Part shown: piece by piece, positions 21,947 through 36,046 of the stretch
How the letters are laid out: each line of letters starts with the position of its first letter
Position numbering within the stretch: position 1 is the stretch's first letter
Origin: Candidatus Comchoanobacterales bacterium
Lineage (GTDB): Bacteria; Pseudomonadota; Gammaproteobacteria; Comchoanobacterales; Comchoanobacteraceae
NCBI GenBank assembly: GCA_049889175.1
Contig: JBMHDW010000002.1
Span: forward strand, 115,172-179,171
Direction of reading: 5' to 3'
DNA length: 64,000 nt
The notes under the pieces: model-generated
What the model was told of the DNA's origin: nothing
What the model saw: only the letters and a program-made list of their open reading frames with translations
The model's database searches: none
Position numbers and translations under genes: made by a program

Positions 21947-22888
21947 ATGATAAAGCATAATAATTCACCTGAAGTTATACCCAATAATGTTGACCAAAAT
22001 GATGTTTTATACCATCAGAAAAAACTAAAGATTCAATCTTTTTTTAATCATAAAGAACAACAAAACAAAAAAAGTCATTTATCGCATCCGTGTTTAGAGA
22101 AATATCAAAGGCCAAATTGGTATCAAAGTAATGAAAATATAAGAGATTTGATCAAACTAGCAAATCAACTCCTAGTGGACTTTGAAGGTGAAAGAATTTA
22201 TGGTTTAGGGCAAAGCCCGGCTTGGATTATTAAAGCTTTAGAATTATTGATAGATAAAAGAGGAGGTTCGAAATCAATTGGTTATATACCTTTCTCTGGT
22301 CGGTTTATGGAGAAAGAAATTAAACGACCTTTTGATAATAATTTTTTTAAAACATTTTGCCATGTCAAAAAAGGCCCATGTTTTCCCAATAATCAAGCAA
22401 TAAATAATTATAGACATGTCCTCGACCAACTTGGCATGGATCCTATTAGCATTATTCAAGCATTTAAGGATAAGCATCAGAAGACAGTATTATTGGAATA
22501 TATTCAAAGTGCAGAGTCACTAGCGTCGTTTATGATTATTTTATACGAATGGGCAATAGAATTAGATAAGTTAGAGCAATTGAAAGAATGCTTCGTTGTT
22601 TGTGCTTTAGCTCAAGATTTTAATAAACTACAGCTTATTTATTTGCCTAAAGTATCATTATATATGAGAAGAATACAAGTCAAGGATACTTTAATCATTC
22701 CACTGGCTAATGGAAAAGATACGGGTCCACAATCAGATAGACTGGTTCCTAAATATTCAGCACAAGATTGGTGTAATCCTATGCATGAAATGATTAATCA
22801 TGATTTTATTAAAGGGTTGGTAGAGAAAGTAAAATGTGAAGTAGACCGCTTTGCTGTTGATGATATTGTTGCAAAAAAACAATCATGA
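21947..22888 (+). CDS. Orphan protein (313 aa); candidate effector
   Basis: ORF with RBS aaaggga immediately downstream of ssrA. No recognisable domain. Confidence 0.55.
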   Translation: MIKHNNSPEVIPNNVDQNDVLYHQKKLKIQSFFNHKEQQNKKSHLSHPCLEKYQRPNWYQSNENIRDLIKLANQLLVDFEGERIYGLGQSPAWIIKALELLIDKRGGSKSIGYIPFSGRFMEKEIKRPFDNNFFKTFCHVKKGPCFPNNQAINNYRHVLDQLGMDPISIIQAFKDKHQKTVLLEYIQSAESLASFMIILYEWAIELDKLEQLKECFVVCALAQDFNKLQLIYLPKVSLYMRRIQVKDTLIIPLANGKDTGPQSDRLVPKYSAQDWCNPMHEMINHDFIKGLVEKVKCEVDRFAVDDIVAKKQS

Positions 22889-24118
22889 CCACAGAGCCCA
22901 AAATTGCTGTTGGTATTGAGCTTGGATGACAAATAGATTAAGCCCAAAAGAGCCAGAGGTATGATAATTAACATCATAAATGACGCCAGATAGATGATCC
23001 AATGAAACACTTCTTGGTAGGGTATTAATAATACAATCAAAGTTATTTAATGAGTTTGAATGTGGTATGCCCATAAGCAATTGTTTTTGAGTGATACCAT
23101 CTTCTCGATGATAGTTAAAAAAACAAGTATGGTTGTGTTTTAATTGATGAGCTAAGAGTTGAGCCATAGAGCCAGCACCTAAAATAAGAATGCGTTGGCG
23201 AGGCCAGTCTTGAGTCAACTCATTGAGTGCAGATTGATCAGTATTGGTCCCAAGCCATTGTTGACCATCAAAGGCTAATGTATTGATAGGTCCTTGATGA
23301 TTACACCATGACGCCACTGTTTGTTTATGAGGTGATGTAATACTTAATTGATGGATTCCCAATATTTCCAATAATGGTTTGAGTTGAGCTACATATTCTG
23401 ACGATACCTCAAGTGTAATGTAAATAGCATCTTGTTGTGTTAAGCGATGATGCAAGCCATGCCAAAATGGGCCCAAACTATGATGAGCAGGATTGCCAAG
23501 TAATGCTCTTATTCTAGTATTTGTTGATATTGGGTTAAGATATCGATCTTGCAGTAATAATTGTGATGAATGTAGGCTCTGATGCCAGCCTAAATAGTCA
23601 AATGCCCCCCATTTGGGTCCTAGGATGCGTAAACTACGACCATGACAACCTGTGCCTAGAATAGTGACTTGTGAATGTTGTTTGATATAAAGCATCATGT
23701 TAAGTGCTTGATATGCACTTTGTATGGGCAATACTATTTTAACATGATCCGCCAACGGTTGTAATTGTTTCACCCAGTCGTCAATATTGTTAATGGATTC
23801 TGTGGTATGTAAGGAGCGAATGACTTTTAAGTTGGGATATTGCTGTTTGATCATTTGAACCCATGCCAGCGGAACATCATGTTCACAGTCTATCCAATCA
23901 GGCTGTATTTTTTGAATTAAATCAACAAAATATTTCAAACGCGATGGTGAAGAGGGTTCATGATGACGATATGTCAATATCGACTGACAATGTTGAAGTT
24001 GGTGCCATTGTTGAATATCATCCAGTGACTTATTGATTAAATCCATACGAAGTTCATAAGCATTAATGTCTTTAGGAAGAGGTATTTGCGGTAAATGATC
24101 AAGACAAAGAATACGCAT
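22883..24118 (-). CDS. aroDE: Bifunctional 3-dehydroquinate dehydratase (type I) / shikimate 5-dehydrogenase fusion
   Basis: The N-terminal half is AroD-like (YELRMDL, VKIVLP..., ILGTGCHGRSLRILGPKWGA). The C-terminal half is AroE-like (LLGNPAHHSLGP, SITSPHKQ, GPINTL...GTNTD, ILILGAGSMA). Confidence 0.82.
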   Translation of the reverse strand: MRILCLDHLPQIPLPKDINAYELRMDLINKSLDDIQQWHQLQHCQSILTYRHHEPSSPSRLKYFVDLIQKIQPDWIDCEHDVPLAWVQMIKQQYPNLKVIRSLHTTESINNIDDWVKQLQPLADHVKIVLPIQSAYQALNMMLYIKQHSQVTILGTGCHGRSLRILGPKWGAFDYLGWHQSLHSSQLLLQDRYLNPISTNTRIRALLGNPAHHSLGPFWHGLHHRLTQQDAIYITLEVSSEYVAQLKPLLEILGIHQLSITSPHKQTVASWCNHQGPINTLAFDGQQWLGTNTDQSALNELTQDWPRQRILILGAGSMAQLLAHQLKHNHTCFFNYHREDGITQKQLLMGIPHSNSLNNFDCIINTLPRSVSLDHLSGVIYDVNYHTSGSFGLNLFVIQAQYQQQFWALWS

Positions 24119-25151
24119 GATTTTTGATCCAATGATGAATAAAGTGTTTGCTTTGTGAGATACTTAATGAGTGAAGAAATGGTTGGCCAAAATCATGAAG
24201 TAATACCCAGGTTAAAGTTGAGCTTTGTCTCTTTTTATCATTCATACATGCGTTAATTAATAAATCTGAGCACATATTTGAAGGTGGTTTAATATTTAAA
24301 CGTTGCCATGCTTGTGTGATGGCATGCACATGTTCTTGTGGGAAGTTAAATAGTTCAGCAGAAACATGTGCGATAAAATGAAGTCCTAGTGCTACACCAA
24401 CACCGTGGGGGACGTGATAGATACTTTCAATGGCATGACCTAATGTATGACCTAAATTAAGCATTTGTCGCCGGTTATGATCATAAGGATCTGCTCTTAC
24501 AAATGATTGCTTAATTTCGAGCTGCTGTTTTATATTATCAGCGTTATGATAGTTTAAGAATGTCTCAATGGGGTCATGGTTATTCAATAAATGCAAGCTG
24601 TATTTTTCATCAGTGAGGAAAAAATGTTTATAGCACTCAATGATGCCATTACGTTTTTCAACCCAAGGAAGTGTTTGAAGAGTTTCCATCACGATTAGGG
24701 TATATTTGGGATTTGAGAAAACACCGAGTGCATTTTTAACGTCACATGCATTAATAGCTGTTTTACCACCCAATGATGCATCAACCATGGCCAAAAGCGA
24801 TGTTGGGCAGTATAGACAATCAATACCTCTTAAATACGTTGCGGCGGTAAAGCCAACAAGATCTAAAATCATGCCACCACCACAAGCGATGATTAAGTCA
24901 TGACGGCATAAGCCCAGTCGTAGCCATTGATCTTCAAGCCATGCTTTGGTGTGTCTAGATTTGCTGGTTTCACCGGCAGGGATAACAATGGTAGCTTCAG
25001 TCGTTAAGATACTCAGTTTGATGGCAATATGTTGTGTATGATGATCACATATAATAATGCTTCGAGGGTATTGTTGAATGAGATATGGCTGAGCTAAATC
25101 ATTAAAAGATCCGATGATATGTACAGTTGAGGGCAGTGAATTATCCAGCAT
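24099..25151 (-). CDS. aroB: 3-dehydroquinate synthase
   Basis: GGGMILDLVGFTAATYLRGI, GGKTAIN and LNLGHTLGHAIE motifs. Overlaps the aroDE start. Confidence 0.9.
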   Translation of the reverse strand: MLDNSLPSTVHIIGSFNDLAQPYLIQQYPRSIIICDHHTQHIAIKLSILTTEATIVIPAGETSKSRHTKAWLEDQWLRLGLCRHDLIIACGGGMILDLVGFTAATYLRGIDCLYCPTSLLAMVDASLGGKTAINACDVKNALGVFSNPKYTLIVMETLQTLPWVEKRNGIIECYKHFFLTDEKYSLHLLNNHDPIETFLNYHNADNIKQQLEIKQSFVRADPYDHNRRQMLNLGHTLGHAIESIYHVPHGVGVALGLHFIAHVSAELFNFPQEHVHAITQAWQRLNIKPPSNMCSDLLINACMNDKKRQSSTLTWVLLHDFGQPFLHSLSISQSKHFIHHWIKNHAYSLS

Positions 25152-25264
25152 ATATTGATGATGGCTATTTTTATGTCAATTTGCAAATGTGTTTCAAAAA
25201 ACAATGCTATTTGTGATATCTAAATCAAATTAATAAAAATAAATCGTGTTTTTTTTCATATATG

Positions 25265-25270
25265 TACTAT
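25265..25270 (+). promoter_or_regulatory. Putative -10 element (TACTAT within TGTACTATA) upstream of A1
   Basis: The block aaatcgtgttttttt...tgtactata recurs upstream of both family-C genes (31176, 32231), at the same roughly 30-nt distance from the ATG. Confidence 0.3.
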
Positions 25271-25300
25271 ACGTTTCATAATTAACTTTGAGGAAATAAA

Positions 25301-26119
25301 ATGGGTAAACAAATGATCATTAGATTAAGTGCGTTAATCGTAGTTATATTAATAGGTGCCGCAGGGTGGTTTTTTCTTCTAGCTGGACCTTATCAAACGG
25401 ATAATATGAAGAAAGTTGATAAGCAGTTCGATGTAGTGCATGATATTTATTATCAACTAGGTGATGGAGACTCTAAGGATCAATTCGGTTCTGTTAATAA
25501 CGGTATTCTGAGTCTTAAGCACATGTACAATCTTCAGTTTGATTGGGATGAGATCAAGCCTTTTGAGCAGAAGTTTAAAGAACGAGATGAACATATTCGT
25601 TCAATTAAAGCAAAGCAAAAAGAGCTTAAAGCCGATGGTGTAAGTGATGATAAGAAAACTCAGTTAAATAATGATATTGCAGATCTAACAAAGAAGGTAG
25701 ATCAAGTATCAAATGATTATCAAACTGCCATAGTAGGTATTGAGAGTATTGACTTGGATGATATTGACAAAGACACTTTGGGTTTGGGTTATTGTGTTTT
25801 AATATCATCATATGCGCCAATAATTTCAGTTAATCTAATAGATACTGATCAAAACGATCTTATTCAGGGTCAAAAATCTAATGCTTCCGATATACGATTG
25901 AAGGATTTAAAATATATTTAAGATGATAAAACAATAGGCGTTGACAAGATGACTGGTAAGCAATATATATCTTTATTAGATGACTGTTATACAGGTATTC
26001 AAAATTGGTATGAACTTTTTACTAAGAATAAAGGTGTGGATCCTAAAGGTGACACTTTTGATTTGAATCTATCGGATGATCAAATTCAATCATTAAAAGA
26101 TGCCATCAAAGATGAGTGA
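25301..26119 (+). pseudogene. Family-A array gene A1, interrupted by one in-frame TAA at 25919-25921
   Basis: N-terminal TM anchor (LSALIVVILIGAAGWFFLLAG) and family-A blocks (VNNGILSLKHMYNLQF..IKPFEQKFKERDEHIRSIKAKQKELK...). After the TAA the same frame continues into ...GVDKMTGKQYISLLDDC...DLNLSDDQIQSLKDAIKDE. Confidence 0.75.
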
Positions 26120-26198
26120 TGATCATGAATAAAGATATGCCCGAATACATTCGGGCATATTTTTATCACACACATTCGTTTTTATGGTCTATAAGAAA
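26117..26198 (+). promoter_or_regulatory. 82-nt intergenic cassette copy 1: intrinsic terminator hairpin (26137-26158 plus T-tract) followed by CACACA-N17-TATAAG putative promoter
   Basis: Perfect palindrome ATGCCCGAAT-AC-ATTCGGGCAT followed by ATTTTTAT, then CACACA (26167) N17 TATAAG (26190-26195). The A2 ATG lies 30 nt downstream. Near-identical copies occur at 26976 and 27782. Confidence 0.6.
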
Positions 26199-26225
26199 GA
26201 GATATTTTAATTAAGGGGTATTGAT

Positions 26226-26978
26226 ATGGATATGGGGTTTTTTGCAGTAATAATGAGTGTTTTGGGGGAGTTATATTTAACCGATGCCATGAAGGAAAAG
26301 AAAAGACAGCTTGACGTGGTAAATAATATTTATTATGAGGTTGATGAGAAGTACCAAGTAGCATTTGGAACAGTAAATAATGGTATTACGAGTCTTAAGC
26401 ACGCTTACGACCTCCAGTTCAACCTAGATGATATCAAACCTTTTGAAAAGAAGTTTAAAGAAAGAGATGAGCATCTTCGTTCAATTAAAGCAAAACAAAA
26501 AGAGCTCAAAGCCGAAGGCGTTAGTGATGACAAGAAAAGTCAGTTGAATGCTGATATTGCAGACCTTACAAAAAAGGTGAATAAAATATCGAAAGACTAT
26601 GAGACTGCAATACAAGGCATTGAAACAATTGCCCTAAGCGATGATGATAAAGGTCGTGATGGTATAGGTTATTGTATTGAGGTCATTGCTGCAAGCAGTA
26701 TGATGGGTGCTCCTGATGACTCCGGTACACTAGACGCTATGAGTGTTCTTGGTTTGACAGGTGATCTTAAATATGATGACGATAAAGGCAAGATTGGTGT
26801 TTGTACGATAACAGGTAAGCAATATGTATCATTATTTGATAGTTGTTTTTCCGCGATTGACATTGTATATGCTGGTTTAATCAAGGGTAAAGGCTTCTCT
26901 GCTGATTCAGAGGTAATTGATTTAAATCTATCGGATGATCAAATTCAATCATTAAAAGATTCCATCAAAGATGAGTGA
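26226..26978 (+). CDS. Family-A array gene A2 (250 aa)
   Basis: RBS aagggg. Contains all family-A blocks and the tail DLNLSDDQIQSLKDSIKDE. Near-identical to A3 at nucleotide level apart from a linker indel. Confidence 0.75.
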   Translation: MDMGFFAVIMSVLGELYLTDAMKEKKRQLDVVNNIYYEVDEKYQVAFGTVNNGITSLKHAYDLQFNLDDIKPFEKKFKERDEHLRSIKAKQKELKAEGVSDDKKSQLNADIADLTKKVNKISKDYETAIQGIETIALSDDDKGRDGIGYCIEVIAASSMMGAPDDSGTLDAMSVLGLTGDLKYDDDKGKIGVCTITGKQYVSLFDSCFSAIDIVYAGLIKGKGFSADSEVIDLNLSDDQIQSLKDSIKDE

Positions 26979-27057
26979 TGATCATGAATAAAGATATGCC
27001 CGAATACATTCGGGCATATTTTTATCACACACATTCGTTTTTATGGTCTATAAGAAA
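26976..27057 (+). promoter_or_regulatory. 82-nt terminator-plus-promoter cassette copy 2
   Basis: Hairpin at 26996-27017, CACACA at 27026, TATAAG at 27049-27054. The A3 ATG lies 28 nt downstream. Confidence 0.6.
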
Positions 27058-27082
27058 TTATAATATAAATTAAGGAGAAAAA

Positions 27083-27784
27083 ATGGAGATAGTTATAAAT
27101 ATATTAGCATTATTTACTGTTTATCAAACGGATCAAATGAAAGAAAAGGAAAGACAGCTTGACGTGGTATATGATATTTACAATGCGGTTGATGAGAAGT
27201 ACCAAACATCATTTGAAACAGTAAATAATGGTATTTTGAGTCTTAAGCACGCTTACGACCTCCAGTTCAACCTAGATGATATCAAACCTTTTGAAAAGAA
27301 GTTTAAAGAAAGAGACGAGCATCTTCGTTCAATTAAAGCAAAACAAAAAGAGCTAAAAGCCGAAGGCGTTAGTGATGATAAGAAAACTCAGTTAAATAAT
27401 GATATTGCAGATCTAACAAAAAAGGTGAATAAAATATCGAAAGACTATGAGACAGCAATACAAGGCATTGAAAGCATAGCCCTAAGCGATGATGATAAAG
27501 GTAGTGATGGTATAGGTTATTGTATTGAGGTCATTGCTGCAAGCAGTATGATGGGTGCTCCTGATGAATTCAGTACAGTAAGTGACGCTATGAGTGTTCT
27601 TGGTGTTGATACGATAACAGGTAAGCAATATGTATCATTATTTGATAGTTGTTTTTCCGCGATTGACACTCTATATGCTGGTTTAATCAAGAATAAAGGC
27701 TTCTCTGCTGATCAAGAGGTAATTGATTTAAATCTATCGGATGATCAAATTCAATCATTAAAAGATGCCATCAAAGATGAGTGA
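27083..27784 (+). CDS. Family-A array gene A3 (233 aa)
   Basis: RBS aaggag. Family-A blocks and tail DLNLSDDQIQSLKDAIKDE. Confidence 0.78.
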   Translation: MEIVINILALFTVYQTDQMKEKERQLDVVYDIYNAVDEKYQTSFETVNNGILSLKHAYDLQFNLDDIKPFEKKFKERDEHLRSIKAKQKELKAEGVSDDKKTQLNNDIADLTKKVNKISKDYETAIQGIESIALSDDDKGSDGIGYCIEVIAASSMMGAPDEFSTVSDAMSVLGVDTITGKQYVSLFDSCFSAIDTLYAGLIKNKGFSADQEVIDLNLSDDQIQSLKDAIKDE

Positions 27785-27863
27785 TGATCATGAATAAAGA
27801 TATGCCCGAATACATTCGGGCATATTTTTATCACACACATTCGTTTTTATGGTCTATAAGAAA
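27782..27863 (+). promoter_or_regulatory. 82-nt terminator-plus-promoter cassette copy 3 (precedes B1)
   Basis: Hairpin at 27802-27823 and TATAAG at 27855-27860. The B1 ATG lies 25 nt downstream. Confidence 0.6.
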
Positions 27864-27885
27864 GAAATATACTAATAAGGATTGT

Positions 27886-28488
27886 ATGATTAAACACATA
27901 TTAATGTTATTTTTCAGTGCTGTAACAATGCAGGCTGGATTTGCAGAACAAGAAGGTGAATGTACTAAAGTTTTATCAACAGATCTAGATAGTCGTATCA
28001 TTTATTGGGAAGATACGTTGGGTGAAGATCATGATACCAACGTTGATTCTTTCAAAGATATACATCATGGTCTCAAAAGTTTTAAATTCTTGATCAGTCT
28101 TGAAGATCCATTATGTATCAATAAAAAAGACTCAAAGGGTATGATTGGTTTAGATTATAATGATAGATATCAAGTAGCAGGGTGTATGAATATTATCAAA
28201 AAAGCCTATGATATTGCTGTAAACAACAATCTTGAATATTTACAAAGTTTGAGAAGGCATCATGACGAAATTAGGGTGATGATCAATTACGATGAAAATA
28301 CTAGACAAATGAAGGCTAGCTCAATACCTGTTGATGAAATGAGACGGTTAAAAGATTTTTGTGAGATTTCTATACAGCTACATTACTGTCAGCTGTTAAA
28401 ATCAAAAGACCAAAGTGATGACCAAAAAAAAGAAATGAAGAAAACATATCCCAACATTGAGTTTATTTGTAAGGATTATCAAAGTTAA
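27886..28488 (+). CDS. Family-B array gene B1: secreted six-Cys protein (about 200 aa)
   Basis: The start was reset to MIKHILMLFFSAVTMQAGFA (Sec-type signal peptide, RBS aagga). The six Cys are conserved with B2 (AGCMNIIKKAYDIA, FCEISIQLHYCQLL, FICKDY). Confidence 0.7.
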   Translation: MIKHILMLFFSAVTMQAGFAEQEGECTKVLSTDLDSRIIYWEDTLGEDHDTNVDSFKDIHHGLKSFKFLISLEDPLCINKKDSKGMIGLDYNDRYQVAGCMNIIKKAYDIAVNNNLEYLQSLRRHHDEIRVMINYDENTRQMKASSIPVDEMRRLKDFCEISIQLHYCQLLKSKDQSDDQKKEMKKTYPNIEFICKDYQS

Positions 28489-28577
28489 TCCAGAAGAGTG
28501 CAAGCATCCTCTTGGTTGTATTTAACTATATTAATGAGTAATAGTAATCCTAAATATATAATAAATAAAAATAAAAA

Positions 28578-28609
28578 CACACAAATGGTCTTTTTTGGTC
28601 TATAAGAAA
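28578..28609 (+). promoter_or_regulatory. Diverged copy of the CACACA-N17-TATAAGAAA putative promoter upstream of A4
   Basis: cacacaaatggtcttttttggtctataagaaa. The A4 ATG lies 29 nt downstream of TATAAG. Confidence 0.45.
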
Positions 28610-28635
28610 TAATAATATAAATTAAGGAGAAAAAA

Positions 28636-29412
28636 ATGGAAGATATCATTATAGCAGGTTTATTGGGATTGTGGATAACCTATTTTTTTTATGAAACATT
28701 TATGTTTTATGTTAATTTTTATGAAACAGATGAATGGGCGAAAAAGGAAAGTCAGGTTGCTGAAATAGTAAAAATTTCTGATCTAAATGATGATGCAACT
28801 TTTACAATAAATAGTCTTGAGGCTGCTGCTCATAACTTTTCTATTCTTGAAGCTGGGAAGTTTAAATTTGATAAGGCAAGTAATATTAGCAACATTCTTA
28901 AAAAAAGAGATGAACATCTTAGAGTGATTAATGCTAAGGAAAAAGAATTAAAGCTTGATAATATTAGTGATGATACTAAAAGTCAGTTAAATAATGATAT
29001 TGAAAGGCTTACAGGTCAAGTTGATGCGTTAACTAATGAATTTTTCACCATAGTAGAAGGTAGTCATGAAATGTCTGTATCTGATTGGAGTTTAGTAATG
29101 GTTCAAACGTGTTTGTATCCCTTGATTTGGGGAAAGAATGATGATACTAAGCATTCAAAATTGATTGAACCTGAAGAAATTAAGAGATTGGCAAGTGAAC
29201 TTGAATTATCTCCTGAGGGATTTATAGGAGTCGATGAGATAACAGGCAAGCAATATTTATTGTTATACAATAGTTGTTCTGCTAGCGTTGACTACTTATA
29301 TGATGGCATTTTGAACAACAAAGGATTTTCAGCTACAGATCAAAGTAGGATCGATTTAAACCTATCTGATGAGACAATTCAGCGATTTAAAGATGCCGTT
29401 AAAGATGAGTGA
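28636..29412 (+). CDS. Family-A array gene A4 (258 aa, diverged)
   Basis: RBS aaggag. TM anchor IIIAGLLGLWITYFFY. Blocks KKRDEHLRVINAKEKELK...QLNNDIERLT and ...ITGKQYLLLYNSC...NKGFS...DLNLSDETIQRFKDAVKDE. Confidence 0.75.
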   Translation: MEDIIIAGLLGLWITYFFYETFMFYVNFYETDEWAKKESQVAEIVKISDLNDDATFTINSLEAAAHNFSILEAGKFKFDKASNISNILKKRDEHLRVINAKEKELKLDNISDDTKSQLNNDIERLTGQVDALTNEFFTIVEGSHEMSVSDWSLVMVQTCLYPLIWGKNDDTKHSKLIEPEEIKRLASELELSPEGFIGVDEITGKQYLLLYNSCSASVDYLYDGILNNKGFSATDQSRIDLNLSDETIQRFKDAVKDE

Positions 29413-29441
29413 TTATGATCTTAAAAAAGGGTTATTTTTTT

Positions 29442-29473
29442 CACACAAAGTATCTTTTTTGGTCTATAAGAAA
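29442..29473 (+). promoter_or_regulatory. Diverged copy of the CACACA-N17-TATAAGAAA putative promoter upstream of B2
   Basis: cacacaaagtatcttttttggtctataagaaa. The B2 ATG lies 26 nt downstream. Confidence 0.45.
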
Positions 29474-29496
29474 AAGTAATGTTAATGAAGGAGTTT

Positions 29497-30132
29497 ATGA
29501 TGAGAAAATTATCAATGATTATGCTGGGATCTCTAGCGATGCATACAGGTTTTGCAGATGAAAGCTGCAATTTAGATGAAAGCTTCATTTTAGATGAAAA
29601 TGACATAACAAAACATCATGACAATAGATATGAAGTTATGGAGAAAATTTATGAAGAGATCTCACTAGATGAAGTCAAGAATGATCTTATATATATCCTG
29701 ACTGGCCATGTTAGTTTAAAATATATTATCGGTTTTGCTGAAGTTAATTGTTTAAAAGAAGATGAAGCAGACAAAATAGTCCACATATCAGATTTAGATG
29801 ACTATGGAAGGAGTTCATTAGGCTTTGCTGGCTGTATCCACATGATGAGTATGGCTCATGACATTGCCAGTGAAAAAGGATATAGATTTGTAGATGATGC
29901 AAAAAAAGTTTTTGAAGATCATAGTGAAAGTTTTGATTATCAGGAAAACATACAAATAAATGCTGACCAAGTCACAGTTAGCCAGGTAAGTAGTATTATA
30001 GAACGTTGTGCCTATTCTTTGGTGGTTAATTATTGTCATTTATTAGAAAATAAAAATTTAAGTGATGGTCATAAAAATAGTCTTAAGGAGGCACATCCTG
30101 GTATAGACAGTCTTTGTCAAAAAATGAAATAA
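29497..30132 (+). CDS. Family-B array gene B2: secreted six-Cys protein
   Basis: RBS gaaggag. Signal peptide MMRKLSMIMLGSLAMHTGFA. Cys pattern is collinear with B1 (AGCIHMMSMAHDIA, RCAYSLVVNYCHLL, SLCQKM). Confidence 0.7.
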   Translation: MMRKLSMIMLGSLAMHTGFADESCNLDESFILDENDITKHHDNRYEVMEKIYEEISLDEVKNDLIYILTGHVSLKYIIGFAEVNCLKEDEADKIVHISDLDDYGRSSLGFAGCIHMMSMAHDIASEKGYRFVDDAKKVFEDHSESFDYQENIQINADQVTVSQVSSIIERCAYSLVVNYCHLLENKNLSDGHKNSLKEAHPGIDSLCQKMK

Positions 30133-30162
30133 ACCCAATGACTCATTGAGACAAAAACAAAT

Positions 30163-30187
30163 GCCCCGATTAAACGGGGCTTTTGTT
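30163..30187 (+). terminator. Intrinsic terminator after B2
   Basis: GCCCCG-ATTAAA-CGGGGC followed by TTTTGTT. Confidence 0.7.
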
Positions 30188-30226
30188 GGATCAATAGTTT
30201 ATTAAATCACAATGTTGGAGCGTTAA

Positions 30227-31144
30227 ATGACTGATACAATGAAACTAATCAACCTACTGATAGTAGCAACTATCATTTTTGTAGGGATTTGGTACTTTTA
30301 TCCCGATCATGAAGAACGTGACCAGCCATCAAAAGATGATCAGAGTGACATACAAGATAATAAAACTCACTTTGAAAAGGTATTAGAGCGTCAGTTTGAT
30401 GCATTGGTTGATTTAAAAACAACGGATCAAAATACCAGCAATAATGTCAACGCACTGGTGTTGGGTTTGATGAATATCCAGCATATGAATCAACGTCAAT
30501 TTGAACTAGAAGATATTAAGCCCTTTAGAAAAGCATTTATTGAACAAGATGGTGATGAATTAACGTTAAAAGATAAAATCAATAAGCTTGATCACAACAA
30601 CTTAAAACCAAAAGAAAAAGATCAGCTAAATCAAGATATCGAATCGTTAACTCAAAAAATAAACCAGGTTAATCAGGATTATCTTTCAGCATTTAAAGCT
30701 ATTAAAGAGATTCAGTTAACAGAGGAAGATAAATCAGCCATGGGAATGGAACAGTGTATCTTATTGCCAGGATGGGCAGTCATATTGGAAAATGGTAATC
30801 AACTGAGTGATTCATCAAAAAAGATAAAAGATCTTAATAGCAATAATATAACGATTAATGACATCAGTTCAGTTTTAGAAGCGACAAATATTTTTAATCA
30901 TGTTAAGCATCACATATCTGAAAAGAATGACCTTAAAACAAAGCTAATGGGCGATGGTTCTTCAATAATTGTCGAGACTATTTCTGGAGAAGACTATATC
31001 ACAATCTATACATCATGTATTCAAGCAGCAGACATCATGTATCAATCATTGCTAAACAATAAAGGCATTGGAAAAGGAGTATTTCCTGTGGATTTATCTT
31101 TAACATCAGAGCAAATCGAGCAATTAAAGAGTGCAGTTAAATGA
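30227..31144 (+). CDS. Family-A array gene A5 (305 aa, most diverged, longest linker)
   Basis: TM anchor LINLLIVATIIFVGIWYF. Blocks IKPFRKAF...QLNQDIESLTQKINQVNQDY and ...ISGEDYITIYTSC...NNKGIG...DLSLTSEQIEQLKSAVK. Confidence 0.72.
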   Translation: MTDTMKLINLLIVATIIFVGIWYFYPDHEERDQPSKDDQSDIQDNKTHFEKVLERQFDALVDLKTTDQNTSNNVNALVLGLMNIQHMNQRQFELEDIKPFRKAFIEQDGDELTLKDKINKLDHNNLKPKEKDQLNQDIESLTQKINQVNQDYLSAFKAIKEIQLTEEDKSAMGMEQCILLPGWAVILENGNQLSDSSKKIKDLNSNNITINDISSVLEATNIFNHVKHHISEKNDLKTKLMGDGSSIIVETISGEDYITIYTSCIQAADIMYQSLLNNKGIGKGVFPVDLSLTSEQIEQLKSAVK

Positions 31145-31175
31145 TTTAAAAAATCATGTTTTTTATAATAATTTG

Positions 31176-31181
31176 TACTAT
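31176..31181 (+). promoter_or_regulatory. Putative -10 (TACTAT) upstream of C1
   Basis: Conserved aaaaaatcatgtttttta...tttgtactata block, shared with the C2 and A1 upstream regions. Confidence 0.3.
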
Positions 31182-31210
31182 ATAGAAGATACAAATAACA
31201 GAGGTAAATT

Positions 31211-32020
31211 ATGGTAGCAAAAAAAGATACTCACAATGATTGTTGTCAACAGCATTGTTGTTCAATGATGAAAAGAGGACTAAAGATCGCAGTAGCAGGT
31301 TTATTGTTTGTTGGTATTGGACATGCAGATGATCATTTGTCTAATGAAAAATTGACTGTAACATCGATTATGAATCAAGAATTCAATTCATATATTTAAC
31401 CAATCAACGAGATTAAAAGAGTTGAGAAAGCAAAGGATAAGCCAAAAAAAGAATTACTGGATGCCATTGATCAGATTATTAATGCCAGTAAAGGAATACA
31501 AGATATTCAACATGCTCAATTAAGACACCCCCATGTAGTTCCTGTAGTTAATGAGTTTAATGACCTAATAAAACAAGGTGTTTTAGTGAATCATGTGATT
31601 CTTATTGTTGATGAGAAAGGAAAGGAAGAAACTGATAATAAGACGTCATTAGTAAAAAACTTAAAGGAAATAATTAATAAAAGCATGACATCGCAATGGC
31701 AATATCCTATTACATACAGTGATATACAAAAGTGTCTGGATATTGAAGTCCCAGATGATTTTAAAGTAGACGTTGATGGTAGTATGGTTGAGCTGACCGA
31801 TGAAGTTAAAAAGAAGTTGGCTGATAAGAGAGTTGCGTATTATAGAGATTGGAAAACAATCTTAAATAAAGGTGATGAATTAATGTTGGGAGGTTCTTTG
31901 GGATATATTGTAAATGAATGTAATAATAGAGGTCATGCATGGACAGTTTTCATTAACAGTGATGAAATGAAAGCTCATATGACTGATTATCAGAAAGAGT
32001 TATTGAAATCAGTAAAGTGA
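31211..32020 (+). pseudogene. Family-C array gene C1, interrupted by one in-frame TAA (31397-31399) and carrying a deletion in the TM region
   Basis: Collinear with C2. GAA in C2 (HIELINEIKR) is TAA here (YI*PINEIKR). ORFs 31211-31399 and 31586-32020 are in the same frame. The GWYGYNHWF segment of C2 is missing. Confidence 0.8.
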
Positions 32021-32070
32021 TTACTGCTCTTTAAGTTAAAATACCTAAAAAGGGGGGGTAAGTATTCCTG

Positions 32071-32193
32071 ATTCAAGCAGCAGACATCATGAATCAATTA
32101 TTTCTAAACAATAAAGGCATTGGAGAAGGAGTATTTCCTGTGGATTTATCTTTAAACATCAGATCAAGTCAAGCAATTAAAGAGTGCGGTTAA
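32071..32193 (+). pseudogene. Remnant of the A5 3' end created by the tandem duplication
   Basis: attcaagcagcagacatcatg...aataaaggcattgga...tttcctgtggatttatcttta... matches 31019-31144, with substitutions and a 1-nt indel. There is no start codon. Confidence 0.85.
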
Positions 32194-32230
32194 ATAATTT
32201 TAAAAAAATCATGTTTTTTATAATAATTTG

Positions 32231-32236
32231 TACTAT
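32231..32236 (+). promoter_or_regulatory. Putative -10 (TACTAT) upstream of C2
   Basis: Same conserved block as at 31176. Confidence 0.3.
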
Positions 32237-32265
32237 ATGGAAGATACAAATAACAGAGGTAAATT

Positions 32266-33093
32266 ATGGTAGCAAAAAAAGATATTCACAATGATTGTTG
32301 TCAACAGCATTGTTGTTGTCGTTCAATGATGAAGGGCGGGCTAAAGATTGCAGCAGTAGGTCTATTGGTTGTTGGTGTTGGATATGCAGGGTGGTATGGT
32401 TATAATCACTGGTTTAATGAAACATTGACTGTAACATCGATTATGGATCAACAAATCAATTCACATATTGAACTAATCAACGAGATTAAAAGAGTTGAGA
32501 AAGCAAAGGATAAGCCAAAAAAAGAATTACTGAATACAATTGATCAGATTATTAATGCCAGTAAAGGAATACAAGATATTCAACATGCTAAATTAAGACA
32601 CCCCCATGTAGTTCCTGTAGTTAATGAGGTTAACGACTTAATAAAACAAGGTGTTGTAGTGAATCATGAGATTCTTATTGTTGATGAGAAAGGAAAGGAA
32701 GAAACTGATAATAAGACGTCATTAGTGCACGCTTTAAATGATGGAATTAATAAAAGCATGACATCGCAATGGCAATATCCTATTACATACAGTGATATAC
32801 AAAAGTGTCTGGATATTGAAGCCCCAGATGATTTTAAAGTAGACGTTGATGGTAGTATGGTTGAGCTGACCGATGAAGTTAAAAAGAAGTTGGCTGATAA
32901 GAGAGTTGCGTATTATAGAGATTGGAAAACAATCTTAAATAAAGGTGATGAATTAATGTTAAGAGATTCTTTGGATAATATTCAAGAAGAATGTAATAAA
33001 AGAACGCATGCATGGATAGTTTTCATTAACAGTGATGAAATGAAAGCTCATATGACTGATTATCAGAAAGAGTTATTGAAATCAGTAAAGTGA
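32266..33093 (+). CDS. Family-C array gene C2 (275 aa): Cys-cluster N-terminus, single TM, extracytoplasmic domain
   Basis: RBS gaggt. MVAKKDIHNDCCQQHCCC followed by TM LKIAAVGLLVVGVGYAGWYGY. C-terminal tail MTDYQKELLKSVK. Confidence 0.72.
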   Translation: MVAKKDIHNDCCQQHCCCRSMMKGGLKIAAVGLLVVGVGYAGWYGYNHWFNETLTVTSIMDQQINSHIELINEIKRVEKAKDKPKKELLNTIDQIINASKGIQDIQHAKLRHPHVVPVVNEVNDLIKQGVVVNHEILIVDEKGKEETDNKTSLVHALNDGINKSMTSQWQYPITYSDIQKCLDIEAPDDFKVDVDGSMVELTDEVKKKLADKRVAYYRDWKTILNKGDELMLRDSLDNIQEECNKRTHAWIVFINSDEMKAHMTDYQKELLKSVK

Positions 33094-33124
33094 TTACTGC
33101 TCTTTAAGTTGAAATACCAAAAAA

Positions 33125-33150
33125 GGGAGGCGTTAAGCTTCCCTTTTTTT
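33125..33150 (+). terminator. Intrinsic terminator after C2
   Basis: GGGAGGC-GTTAA-GCTTCCC (one G:U pair) followed by TTTTTTT. Confidence 0.7.
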
Positions 33151-33193
33151 ATTGTTTAGATCACGTTATAATATCATTATTTTAAGGGTAACA

Positions 33194-34312
33194 ATGAATC
33201 AATTGGGTCAATACTGTACACTAACAACGTGGGGTGAGTCTCATGGCGATGCTATTGGTGGTGTTATTGATGGATTACCCTCAGGGCTTGTTATTAATAT
33301 GGACGTTATTCATGCGGATATGCAACGGCGACGGCCAGGGCAAAGAAAAGATGTTAGTGCCCGTAAAGAACCTGATCAGTTGACCATTCATTCAGGTGTT
33401 TATCTAGGCAAAACCACGGGTGCACCATTGTCTTTCAGTATTGTGAATCAAGATGTTAGATCACAAGATTATCCTCAAAAGCTCATTCGACCTGGTCATG
33501 CTGATGCAACTTATTTAGCTAAATATGGTCATTATGATCCTCGAGGTGGTGGTCGTTCTTCTGCACGTGAAACCGCTATACGCGTCGCTGCTGCCAGTAT
33601 GATCAAACAGCTGCTTAAACCGTTGGGCATCGATGTTTGGGCGTATTTATGTCAAGTTGGACCTTTTCATATGCCTGTTTTGCAGCAGCGCCCTGAAGAT
33701 GCTCAGGATGCGCTCATCAATGGATCATTTCCTTGCCCAGATCAAAAGCTATCTCAAGATATGCAAAATCATATTCAATCGCTTAAAGAGGCTGGTAATT
33801 CTTGTGGGGGCTGTGTGGGCTTTGTGATTTCAGGCTTGCCAAAAGGTTTGGGTGAGCCGGTTTATGATAAGTTTGAGGCTAGATTAGCGCAGTCAATGCT
33901 TTCGATTCCAGCCAGTAAAGGCTTTGATATCGGTCAGGGTTTTGGCGCTGCAGCTATGACAGGCTTAGCTCATAATGATTCGCCTAACGAGCATGATGGC
34001 TTTGATAGTAATGCTGCTGGTGGTTTGTTAGGTGGTATTACCAATGGTGATCCAGTGTATGGACGAGTAGCCTTTAAGCCCACATCAAGTATCAGATTGA
34101 GTCAAAAAACTATCGATTACGATGCCAAACCAACACAATTGGTTTTGCAAGGCCGTCATGATCCATGTGTGGCTGTTCGTGCAACAGTGGTGGTTGAGGC
34201 AATGTGTTGGTTAACTATTATTGATCTTTTACAGCCTTACTGGCAACAGCAATCCATGCAAAAGATGTTAGATCAACATTCAACAGCAGTCAGCCAAGAA
34301 GGATCGCTGTAA
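33194..34312 (+). CDS. aroC: Chorismate synthase
   Basis: TTWGESHG, RRRPGQ, GGGRSSARETA and GGLLGGITNG motifs. The start was set at MNQLGQY. The 3' end overlaps the convergent aroK 3' end by 40 nt. Confidence 0.92.
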   Translation: MNQLGQYCTLTTWGESHGDAIGGVIDGLPSGLVINMDVIHADMQRRRPGQRKDVSARKEPDQLTIHSGVYLGKTTGAPLSFSIVNQDVRSQDYPQKLIRPGHADATYLAKYGHYDPRGGGRSSARETAIRVAAASMIKQLLKPLGIDVWAYLCQVGPFHMPVLQQRPEDAQDALINGSFPCPDQKLSQDMQNHIQSLKEAGNSCGGCVGFVISGLPKGLGEPVYDKFEARLAQSMLSIPASKGFDIGQGFGAAAMTGLAHNDSPNEHDGFDSNAAGGLLGGITNGDPVYGRVAFKPTSSIRLSQKTIDYDAKPTQLVLQGRHDPCVAVRATVVVEAMCWLTIIDLLQPYWQQQSMQKMLDQHSTAVSQEGSL

Positions 34313-34725
34313 CGATGTGTGGCAATGGCCATGTATTGTTCATGTCGTTGTGCCCACCAAGATGACCAATCATGAGGATAGCGACCATGGTCTTGATGTA
34401 ATCGTTCGTGTGTCCAGGACATCGGTCGGTCAAGGTAAAGGCAAAAGCGACATGATTGCTTTATCCATTGTGCATTAGGTGTGAAGAGTGGTGTGCCGCC
34501 ACCGCAATCCAAAATGCCATCTTTTGATAGGTTATGTAGTTGAAGGTTTTCTAGCCACATAAAATAGTTATCACCATACTGGCGGATTATCTCTCTTGGT
34601 GACATTTCATATGTGTTATCAAGGTGAGTAACAGGGCGTTGTAAAGTTTTGCTGAGCTGTTGGCTTAGTGTGGTCTTTCCTGATCCTGGAAAGCCAATGA
34701 TGGCGATGTATACTGATTGATCCAT
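34273..34725 (-). CDS. aroK: Shikimate kinase
   Basis: P-loop IAIIGFPGSGKTTLSQQL, about 150 aa, located between aroA and aroC. Overlaps the aroA 3' end by 61 nt. Confidence 0.75.
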   Translation of the reverse strand: MDQSVYIAIIGFPGSGKTTLSQQLSKTLQRPVTHLDNTYEMSPREIIRQYGDNYFMWLENLQLHNLSKDGILDCGGGTPLFTPNAQWIKQSCRFCLYLDRPMSWTHERLHQDHGRYPHDWSSWWAQRHEQYMAIATHRYSDPSWLTAVEC

Positions 34726-35939
34726 GTGAATGTCTCTTTAAATTGTGGAAAGCTTTTATTAATGCAATGATCGTGACTTAACGGCTTTGCATCAGCGCAG
34801 ATTGAGTTAGCTAGATGTAACATCATTGCCATACGGTGATCTTGGTAATGATCTAATGATGCATGATGTAATGCTGATGGGTAAACAACCATTGTGTCAT
34901 CATGATAATCGATTGCAGCCCCCATTAAACCGAGTTGTTGTTGAATTACCTTTGGGCGATTACATTCTTTGGTTGTTGCAATACGGATGCCAGAGAACAT
35001 GCTGGGTCCTGTATCGGCTTGAGTGGCCATTAAGGCCATTAATGGTAATAAGTCAATGCTGTCATTCAAATCTGCTTGAATGGGGTCAATGATTTTTGGC
35101 GGGATGATGCTTATTTTTTGTGCATGTATTGTTATCTTAGCCCCCATTTGTTTCAAAAGCTTGATGATGGCAGTGTCGGGTTGTGACCATTGTGATAATC
35201 TATAGGGCATTGATAGGGCTTTTTGATGTAGTATTGACCACACTAACCAGTGCCCAATCAAGCCAATATCAATGGGTAAAGAGGTCTCAAAGCCATGGGT
35301 GTTGGTTTTGGGGGTGATGCGAATTGAATCCCAGTGATCTTGAACTATCTGATGGCCAAGAAAGCGTAGCCAGTCTATGGTCATTGAAATGAAAGGGCGC
35401 TCACCAGCGTGTTGCAGATTAATCGATGAAGGCGGTTGATTAGTTAGTGCAAGAACGCATAATAAAGCGCTTATCGGCTGGCTGTCTTCGCTATGAATGG
35501 TTATCGATGTGTTAGTTAAGGGCCCATGAATACTTAAAGGTGCAAAGCCTGGATGCTCTAAATACTGTATCTGTGCACCACAATCAATTAATGTATTGAC
35601 CAAAGTGGCCATAGGGCGTGTTTGGCATGATGCATCACCCGTTATGATGGTTTTGTGGGGTTGAGTGGCAGCTAGCGCACTAACAAATCTTAATAAAATA
35701 CCCGAGTTACCAGCATCTAGTTGGCTTTTAAATGGCCAGCCATTGGGCGTTACTGTTGCTGTATTGTGACTGATTTGAATCATCAATGGATCTTTAAGCA
35801 TTGAGATTAAGGTATAGACATCATCAGATAAGGTTACAGGTGTAATGTGACTTGGTGAGTCGCAAAATAGCGCCATTAAAAGAGCCCTCAATTGATGAGA
35901 TTTTGAGATGGGCATTAAGTAATGTGGTATTTGAATCAT
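34665..35939 (-). CDS. aroA: 3-phosphoshikimate 1-carboxyvinyltransferase (EPSP synthase)
   Basis: PISKSHQLRALLMA (compare LPGSKS..NR), DHRMAMM near the C-terminus, about 425 aa. Confidence 0.85.
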   Translation of the reverse strand: MIQIPHYLMPISKSHQLRALLMALFCDSPSHITPVTLSDDVYTLISMLKDPLMIQISHNTATVTPNGWPFKSQLDAGNSGILLRFVSALAATQPHKTIITGDASCQTRPMATLVNTLIDCGAQIQYLEHPGFAPLSIHGPLTNTSITIHSEDSQPISALLCVLALTNQPPSSINLQHAGERPFISMTIDWLRFLGHQIVQDHWDSIRITPKTNTHGFETSLPIDIGLIGHWLVWSILHQKALSMPYRLSQWSQPDTAIIKLLKQMGAKITIHAQKISIIPPKIIDPIQADLNDSIDLLPLMALMATQADTGPSMFSGIRIATTKECNRPKVIQQQLGLMGAAIDYHDDTMVVYPSALHHASLDHYQDHRMAMMLHLANSICADAKPLSHDHCINKSFPQFKETFTWINQYTSPSLAFQDQERPH

Positions 35940-36046
35940 GAAAGGCAGTCTAGCGATTATTATGCACTCATGCAAGTTACGTTGCTAAAGGTTTAAAAAC
36001 CATTCATCTTGAGTTAAACTGATTTTAAGATTAAATTAAGGATGTT

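Follow-up and report, generated by a model that had tools for sequence, protein, structure and literature searches.

Dot/Icm-bearing and other obligate host-associated bacteria (Legionellales, Coxiellales and UBA7916/Comchoanobacterales) carry lineage-specific arrays of tandem paralogues that encode orphan proteins of exported or effector-like type; these are the closest described counterparts of the locus analyzed here, and Comchoanobacterales have been reported to combine small genomes with a Coxiella/Legionella-type type IV secretion system (T4SS) and many host-directed proteins (PMC9418006). Our locus lies in a stretch of 64,000 nucleotides from a Candidatus Comchoanobacterales bacterium (the window), which corresponds to positions 115172-179171 of contig C2 in a 1.34-Mb, 16-contig, 91%-complete genome. 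Within the window an 8-kb run of plus-strand genes, in the order A1-A2-A3-B1-A4-B2-A5-C1-C2, separates aroB (minus strand) from an inverted aroC (plus strand), with A, B and C denoting protein families. An initial annotation of this DNA had noted the repeated A-then-B order and proposed a two-component module in which a membrane-anchored A protein is kept next to a secreted six-cysteine B protein. The explanation that best accounts for the locus as a whole, and that we hold with moderate confidence, is that the array arose by tandem expansion, within this species, of a single superfamily of exported proteins.

Like the lineage-specific arrays, the locus is built of orphan genes without homologues outside the species, and it combines tandem duplication, gene conversion, apparently pseudogenised copies (A1 and C1) and lowered G+C with a host-associated genome that encodes a type IVB secretion system. 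It differs from them in that its genes belong to no described effector or exported family, in its site inside a shikimate gene cluster, in the alternation of anchored long and soluble short forms, and in a private promoter cassette carried by five genes. As lineage-specific expansions go, it is of an ordinary kind, although the protein families that compose it are new. A second point of comparison is the XaxAB/YaxAB/ClyA group (NF033928), which likewise has two adjacent genes and all-helical proteins with a long helical hairpin, and to whose XaxA subunit A1-A3 show a weak match. However, that match reaches ~21 bits against a family cut-off of 125, no fold match was obtained, A has a predicted N-terminal anchor, and B, with its signal peptide and three putative disulfides, does not resemble XaxB. 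Similarly, the A stretch QLNNDIADLTKKVNKISKDY resembles the heptads of Braun lipoprotein (Lpp), and A, too, has a predicted periplasmic stalk with a membrane tether, but it lacks a lipobox, matches Lpp over only 28 residues (E 0.2-0.3) and carries a large extra C-terminal domain.

The A and B genes of the array, with protein lengths in amino acids (aa) and the open reading frame (ORF) calls on which some of them rest, are as follows.

25301-26119 (ORF 25301-25921), plus strand: A1, strong N-terminal transmembrane segment, in-frame TAA (ORF call and genome match)
26226-26978, plus strand: A2 (250 aa), short N-terminal hydrophobic stretch (ORF call)
27083-27784, plus strand: A3 (233 aa), 12-residue hydrophobic N-terminus, helical hairpin, C-terminal domain with C147 and C190
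27886-28488, plus strand: B1 (200 aa, beginning MIKHIL), signal peptide MIKHILMLFFSAVTMQAGFA followed by EQ, Cys 26, 77, 100, 159, 168 and 195
28636-29412, plus strand: A4 (258 aa), transmembrane-like N-terminal segment, helical hairpin, conserved C159 and C214
29500-30132, plus strand: B2 (210 aa from MRKLSM), signal peptide ending LAMHTGFA and followed by DE, Cys 23, 84, 112, 170, 179 and 206
30227-31144, plus strand: A5 (305 aa), strong transmembrane segment followed by an acidic stretch (ORF call)

The A proteins form one paralogous family, with identities of 85% (A2/A3), 59% (A1/A3), 41% (A3/A4) and 33% (A3/A5). A5 is the most diverged member, at 26-33% identity to the others. In A1 an in-frame TAA occupies 25919-25921, after which the conserved C-terminal domain (…TGKQYISLLDDC…LNLSDDQIQSLKDAIKDE) resumes in the same frame and runs to 26119; A1 is a putative pseudogene or split gene, unless the TAA reflects sequencing or strain variation. 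The membrane anchor ascribed to A applies to A1 and A5, and less clearly to A4. The best 19-residue hydropathy is 2.6 for A1, 2.2 for A5 and 1.6 for A4, whereas in A2 and A3 the hydrophobic stretch at the N-terminus is just 12-15 residues long and hydropathy stays at or below 1.5 in every window of that region. As read from its residues, the tail of A has an acidic or polar character and places a hydrophobic residue at position -4.

B1 and B2 are homologous, with 22-25% identity and a BLASTP E value of 2e-20. Each has six cysteines, five of which fall in aligned columns, the first being shifted merely by gap placement. Signal peptides of both proteins, judged by eye, show n-, h- and c-regions and small residues at -3 and -1 (MIKH-ILMLFFSAVTM-QAGFA before E in B1; MRK-LSMIMLGSLAM-HTGFA before D in B2). 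Because this canonical cleavable signal peptide occurs together with six conserved, paired cysteines in the mature part, and the genome encodes a DsbA-like protein, B is predicted to be exported via Sec to the periplasm and oxidised by Dsb; the description of B as a secreted six-cysteine protein is supported to this extent. B may be released by another route; GspL was not detectable in the genome. The B1 reading frame had originally been taken from a GTG at 27781, which we rejected, as that ORF would read through a terminator hairpin and a promoter-like cassette. The true start is the ATG at 27886, and the same product is present in the protein collection. For B2, an alternative start is possible at 29479.

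Several comparisons suggest that A and B are themselves related. In hhalign, the A and B profiles align over 86 columns in the C-terminal halves of both (score 26.5, P 0.004), with the first and second cysteines of A placed on the third and fourth of B, and Y..LL.NK placed on YC.LL.(S/N)K. Only 1 of 400 column-shuffled B profiles attained 26.5 (null mean 13.1, standard deviation 2.4), and the control comparisons scored lower (A-C 17.4, B-C 15.1); profile comparisons gave no homology of A or B to family C. We also searched hidden Markov models (HMMs) of A and B against all 1168 genomic ORFs with a length of 100 aa or more and ranked the matches. In this proteome-rank test the best non-A match of the A model is B2 (E 0.012) and the best non-B matches of the B model are A2 and A3 (E 0.005 and 0.031), making the two families reciprocal best non-self matches in their own proteome (E 0.005-0.03). 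With the C-terminal block of A alone, B2 ranked first and B1 third among non-A ORFs. Furthermore, MAFFT on the excised domains independently aligns both cysteines, the tyrosine, the lysine and an (N)LSD..LK motif, and the predicted secondary structures agree in their succession of cysteine helix, helix, short strand, long cysteine helix and C-terminal helix. An N-terminal A-B similarity that appeared in HMMER alignments failed the proteome-rank test and was set aside. We are fairly confident, on these grounds, that B is a remote, shortened paralogue of the C-terminal two-cysteine domain of A. Such homology would mean that the entire A/B part of the array derives from one gene.

The duplication history of the array can be read from its coding and spacer sequences. 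The order A3-B1 and A4-B2 does repeat on the plus strand with much diverged second copies, as first described. Synonymous divergence (dS, Nei-Gojobori) is 1.15 for A3/A4 and 1.22 for B1/B2, similar values that are both saturated, and nonsynonymous divergence (dN, Nei-Gojobori) is 0.54 and 0.69, respectively. The similar dS values fit a single event in which both genes were copied. Additionally, the spacers from A3 to B1 and from A4 to B2 are homologous, each beginning GATGAGTGAT followed by G or T and ATGATC and containing CACACA ... GGTCTATAAGAAA, and between this motif and the ATG the leaders of A3 and A4 hardly differ, even though coding dS exceeds 1. The last ~120 nt aligned, made up of the 3' end of A1 and an 82-nt cassette, match A2/A3 at 96-100% identity, compared with 34-91% for the remainder of A1. 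This mosaic indicates gene conversion or concerted evolution. Homologous spacers and leaders, three copies of the 82-nt cassette, a junction fragment from the 3' end of A5 and mosaic identity are all present, as tandem segmental duplication with concerted evolution would leave them.

A single old duplication of an A-spacer-B block would suffice to produce A-B-A-B, and selection on adjacency is not required. Since one block duplication leaves the same pattern, the repeated order is best read as the footprint of a segmental duplication. The statement that the arrangement does not look like a single recent duplication was correct as to age, but one old block duplication is enough. The further claim that the adjacency is maintained finds no support: two pairs with similar dS and homologous spacers are what one tandem block duplication would leave, and two pairs permit no stronger claim.

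A TARA metagenome scaffold (L001, 2091 nt) carries B1'-A4-B2 nearly base for base and provides an independent copy of the order. The scaffold is identical to the window over ~1,950 nt and differs at both ends. Its positions 1-115, set against window 27990-28105, contain five substitutions in the first ~115 nt, in the 5' part of B1; these could be strain variation or an assembly chimera.

Apart from this scaffold, both families were confined to the source species. Word-indexed searches of 5.8 billion proteins with A and B profiles returned only the proteins of the window itself and the TARA scaffold, and a full HMMER search of 1.84 billion cluster representatives with the A profile returned its own proteins only. 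Clusters of A and B proteins at 90% identity are singletons apart from the TARA scaffold. No A or B relatives were found in pattern and tblastn scans of one genome per GTDB species, in JGI metagenome contigs queried with A and B, or in a six-frame HMM search of 60 relatives and all 31 genomes of the order. Within the source genome, neither family occurs outside this locus. Profiles from Pfam, NCBIfam, PHROGs, PADLOC and PDB sequences gave only sub-threshold coiled-coil noise for A and B. AlphaFold2 models built from shallow alignments were all-helical and poor, with mean predicted local distance difference test (pLDDT) scores of 54.9 for A4 and 56.6 for B1, and Foldseek searches against PDB and BFVD gave a best E of 0.13, none being significant.

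The regulatory elements of the A/B genes fall into the following pattern.

26117-26198, plus strand: cassette copy 1, terminator hairpin ATATGCCCGAATACATTCGGGCATAT with T-run, then CACACA-N17-TATAAG / GGTCTATAAGAAA
26976-27057, plus strand: cassette copy 2, terminator and promoter-like motif
27782-27863, plus strand: cassette copy 3, in the A3/B1 spacer, intrinsic terminator and then promoter-like motif
28578-28609, plus strand: promoter-like motif 5' of A4 (CACACA-N17-TATAAG, GGTCTATAAGAAA)
29442-29473, plus strand: promoter-like motif 5' of B2
30163-30180, plus strand: intrinsic terminator 3' of B2 (fold -22 kcal/mol, z -5.07)

Five exact copies of the 13-mer GGTCTATAAGAAA, each with CACACA lying 17 nt ahead of TATAAG, are present in the 1.34-Mb genome, and genome-wide the combination occurs only upstream of A2, A3, B1, A4 and B2. 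It is absent upstream of A5. Regardless of whether selection or gene conversion has preserved it, this shared upstream element suggests that the five genes are co-regulated. No other observation argues as well for a functional link between A and B, although the element ties the genes as a group and not as cognate pairs. The two-component proposal is supported as far as co-regulation goes, but not as to selected cognate pairing. The spacers after A1, A2 and A3 each hold a perfect 11-bp hairpin followed by a U-run, and the A3/B1 spacer folds at -24.1 kcal/mol (z -6.4), with none of 200 shuffles as stable. In contrast, the A4/B2 spacer has no significant hairpin (fold z -0.44). With a strong predicted intrinsic terminator between them, A3 and B1 would not form an operon, and because A4/B2 lacks such a terminator the two pairs appear to be organised differently.

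Several observations weigh against our explanation. The A-B homology scores are weak (11-13 bits; hhalign probability 8%) and come from very shallow profiles, an unrelated 1210-aa ORF scores similarly over a shorter hydrophobic stretch, and the N-terminal and stalk blocks of A gave no signal to B in the proteome-rank test. The poor A4 and B1 models provide no fold assignment for or against the domain picture. The topology of A is equally uncertain, since flanking charges are ambiguous and the hydrophobic stretches of A2 and A3 are below transmembrane length. Saturation of dS puts a strict 'same age' of the A3/A4 and B1/B2 duplications beyond proof. Finally, conservation of the promoter motif could result from gene conversion and not from selection.

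The alternative that survives best is that A and B are cognate extracytoplasmic partners, such as a receptor and ligand or an anchored protein and its soluble cap or inhibitor, in which each B binds the A protein encoded immediately upstream and adjacency is selected. The recurrence of the order despite deep divergence fits this proposal, as do the genome-unique promoter motif that the A and B genes have in common, the lack of a terminator in the A4-B2 spacer, and the conserved cysteines and export signals on both proteins. Were B and the A head paralogous, pairing of related domains would also be plausible. However, the pairs number only two and can be accounted for by one segmental duplication, a strong terminator lies between A3 and B1, and no B accompanies A2 or A5, which are both intact. 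Three of the five A genes in fact lack a B partner, as had been noted, but A1 should be counted as a pseudogene or split gene and not simply as an orphan copy. Moreover, because A2 and A3 are 85% identical, B1 could not be specific for A3. We consider selected cognate pairing unlikely, while a real A-B complex or working partnership is possible.

A more elaborate version, which we regard as quite unlikely, would make B a triply disulfide-bonded, soluble paralogue of the A head that binds or competes with A outside the cytoplasm. The anchored and soluble forms would then be a self-made receptor-decoy or stalk-cap pair. The duplication behind it would have taken place inside a single species of Dot/Icm bacterium associated with choanoflagellates or protists, and the pair would be switched on by a private promoter cassette and used at the host interface.

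Another alternative holds that the Dot/Icm type IVB system delivers A, together with family C, to the host as membrane-targeted substrates, with the acidic C-terminal tail (..LNLSDDQIQSLKDAIKDE) as signal and B as an unrelated or accessory periplasmic protein. The genome does encode DotH/IcmK (PF12293, 239 bits, E 1.9e-71, positions 38625-39356 of contig C1), so the producer has a Dot/Icm component, and the order's reported secretion system and host-directed proteins (PMC9418006) are in keeping with such a role. The A and C genes are orphan, fast-evolving and tandemly duplicated, the N-terminal segments of A2-A4 are moderately hydrophobic, A5 and C are similar in C-terminal motif, and the acidic tail of A is conserved. 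Dot/Icm translocation signals are usually compositional, however, and normally not conserved as a sequence motif. Furthermore, the extreme N-terminal segment of A1 and A5 is a strong signal-anchor of Sec/SRP type, and no effector family matched (SidA and InaC, E 0.17-0.25). The cysteine pair that A shares with B, a signal-peptide protein, points to an oxidising compartment, and because of it the A head most likely folds there as B does. Delivery through Dot/Icm is decidedly improbable.

It is barely credible that A and B act as toxin and immunity protein, or as the two parts of an alpha-helical pore-forming toxin like XaxAB/ClyA: A is entirely helical and has a moderately hydrophobic segment after its helical hairpin, A1-A3 match alpha-xenorhabdolysin subunit A in NCBIfam (E 1e-4 to 9e-4) and ClyA and XaxB are among the Foldseek entries, but the 19-22 bits fall far below the cut-off of 125 and cover only ~141-212 of the 339 positions of NF033928, a coiled-coil stretch that also matches Lpp, flagellin and designed coiled coils, with no match for A4 or A5; the Foldseek entries, from an A4 model too poor to weigh against the fold, are non-significant (ClyA E 0.31, template-modelling score 0.19; XaxB E 1.0, score 0.17); no adjacent XaxB-like second subunit of about 350 aa was found, B being a six-cysteine protein of 200-210 aa (180 aa where it was set against XaxB) without family match; Pfam, NCBIfam, PHROG, PADLOC, PDB and Foldseek gave no toxin, immunity or enzyme signature in A or B, leaving nothing that points to the suggested toxin/immunity or enzyme/inhibitor module; intact A2 and A5 lack B and a terminator separates A3 from B1; and interbacterial toxins would be of little use to an obligate associate with a 1.3-Mb genome.

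Based on these considerations, we return to the species-specific expansion and propose the following architecture. In A, a signal-anchor at the N-terminus would be followed by a stalk, formed by a helical hairpin or coiled coil, and then by a helical 'head' at the C-terminus that one conserved cysteine pair holds together. B would be an old, shortened paralogue of this head in which a cleavable Sec signal peptide replaces the anchor, the stalk is missing and two extra cysteine pairs are present. Both would be Sec-exported and Dsb-oxidised. The inner membrane would hold A by its anchor, the head projecting into the periplasm, whereas B would be a free periplasmic protein or leave the cell; the related domains of B and the A head may bring the two into contact. 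We envisage that an ancestral block of promoter, A, spacer/promoter and B was duplicated once, long ago, to give A3-B1 and A4-B2, and that later A-only duplications with gene conversion gave A1 and A2 while the terminator/promoter cassette spread. A2, A3, B1, A4 and B2 are probably induced together from separate transcripts, A4-B2 possibly sharing one. A and B may belong to the proteins with which this Dot/Icm-bearing obligate associate equips its envelope or its interface with the host.

The array is bordered by two shikimate genes.

24099-25151, minus strand: aroB (3-dehydroquinate synthase), left border of the array (tblastn to family relatives)
33152-34312, plus strand: aroC, right border of the array, in inverted orientation compared with aroB and aroA (ORF call and comparison with relatives)

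By tblastn, AroB is 36-38% identical to that of family relatives, in which aroB directly adjoins aroC, and AroB identity to the closest family members is no more than ~37-40%. Three relatives (G014, G006 and G010) have a compact, colinear aroA-(aroK)-aroC-aroB-aroDE cluster, while in a fourth (G001) aroC and aroB are separated by an ankyrin-repeat gene and by housekeeping genes, namely DAHP synthase, pabA/pabB and a ComF-like gene. At window 22883-35975 the shikimate genes are split, with aroA-aroK (minus), aroC (plus, inverted) and aroB-aroDE (minus) broken up by the array. Because the three relatives keep the compact colinear cluster, the array and the aroC inversion appear specific to the source lineage, and the array would have been inserted, together with the inversion, into an otherwise compact aroC-aroB junction. 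G+C falls to 31-34% over the array, against 37-40% in the surrounding DNA. The 30 other family and order genomes measure ~0.7-1.9 Mb each, and these small genomes, DotH/IcmK and the ocean scaffold are all consistent with placement in Comchoanobacterales. Beside aroDE, at window 21947-22888, lies an orphan 313-aa ORF without a match in Pfam, NCBIfam, PHROGs or PADLOC. Elsewhere in the genome, an ORF of 1210 aa (positions 49892-53524 of contig C13, minus strand) contains tandem '...NGLALQ(H/Y)A...' repeats, DUF4116-like by eye, and may be a host-directed effector; it came to light through a partial match, by chance, to the C-terminal HMM of A.

Family C lies between A5 and aroC.

31211-33093, plus strand: family C, comprising a broken C1 (31211-32020), an A5 3' fragment (~32062-32190) and an intact C2 (32266-33093)

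C1 is a broken copy of C2, with a stop at 31397 followed by a frame change. Between them, at ~32062-32190, are a degraded A5 3' end and A5-C spacer (A match 32071-32184). This degraded copy in front of C2 shows that the duplicated unit was the A5 3' end, spacer and C, and it makes duplication across gene borders directly visible. A5 ends in LTSEQIEQLKSAVK (window 31100-31141) and C2 in MTDYQKELLKSVK (33052-33090), similar C-terminal motifs in proteins without A-C profile homology, which could be a shared sorting or partner-binding tail. Family C begins with a cysteine cluster (DCCQQHCCC) just before a single transmembrane segment (window 32266-32420), which is unusual for a bacterial membrane protein, and C2 variants of 91-93% identity are found on short ENA and Logan contigs. 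A1, C1 and C2 carry another upstream motif, AAATC(G/A)TGTTTTTT ... TGTACTATA, at window 25235-25275, 31150-31185 and 32200-32240 (in shorter form ATC(A/G)TGTTTTTT...TGTACTATA), and the region upstream of A1 has ATCGTGTTTTTT..TGTACTATA in common with family C. The short core TGTACTATA has ~10 further copies elsewhere in the genome.

Taken together, the A-B order alone gives no ground for calling this locus a toxin/immunity or receptor/ligand module. The locus is a small, clean example of new exported proteins being built by an obligate host-associated bacterium. A gene would first have been duplicated, after which one copy lost the stalk and acquired disulfides; the resulting pair would then have been duplicated in turn, and one terminator/promoter cassette would have spread. 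Should the five co-regulated genes work at the host interface of an uncultured marine Comchoanobacterales-like lineage, their products would be host-interaction factors peculiar to this species, a result that would overturn nothing but would be relevant to protist symbioses.

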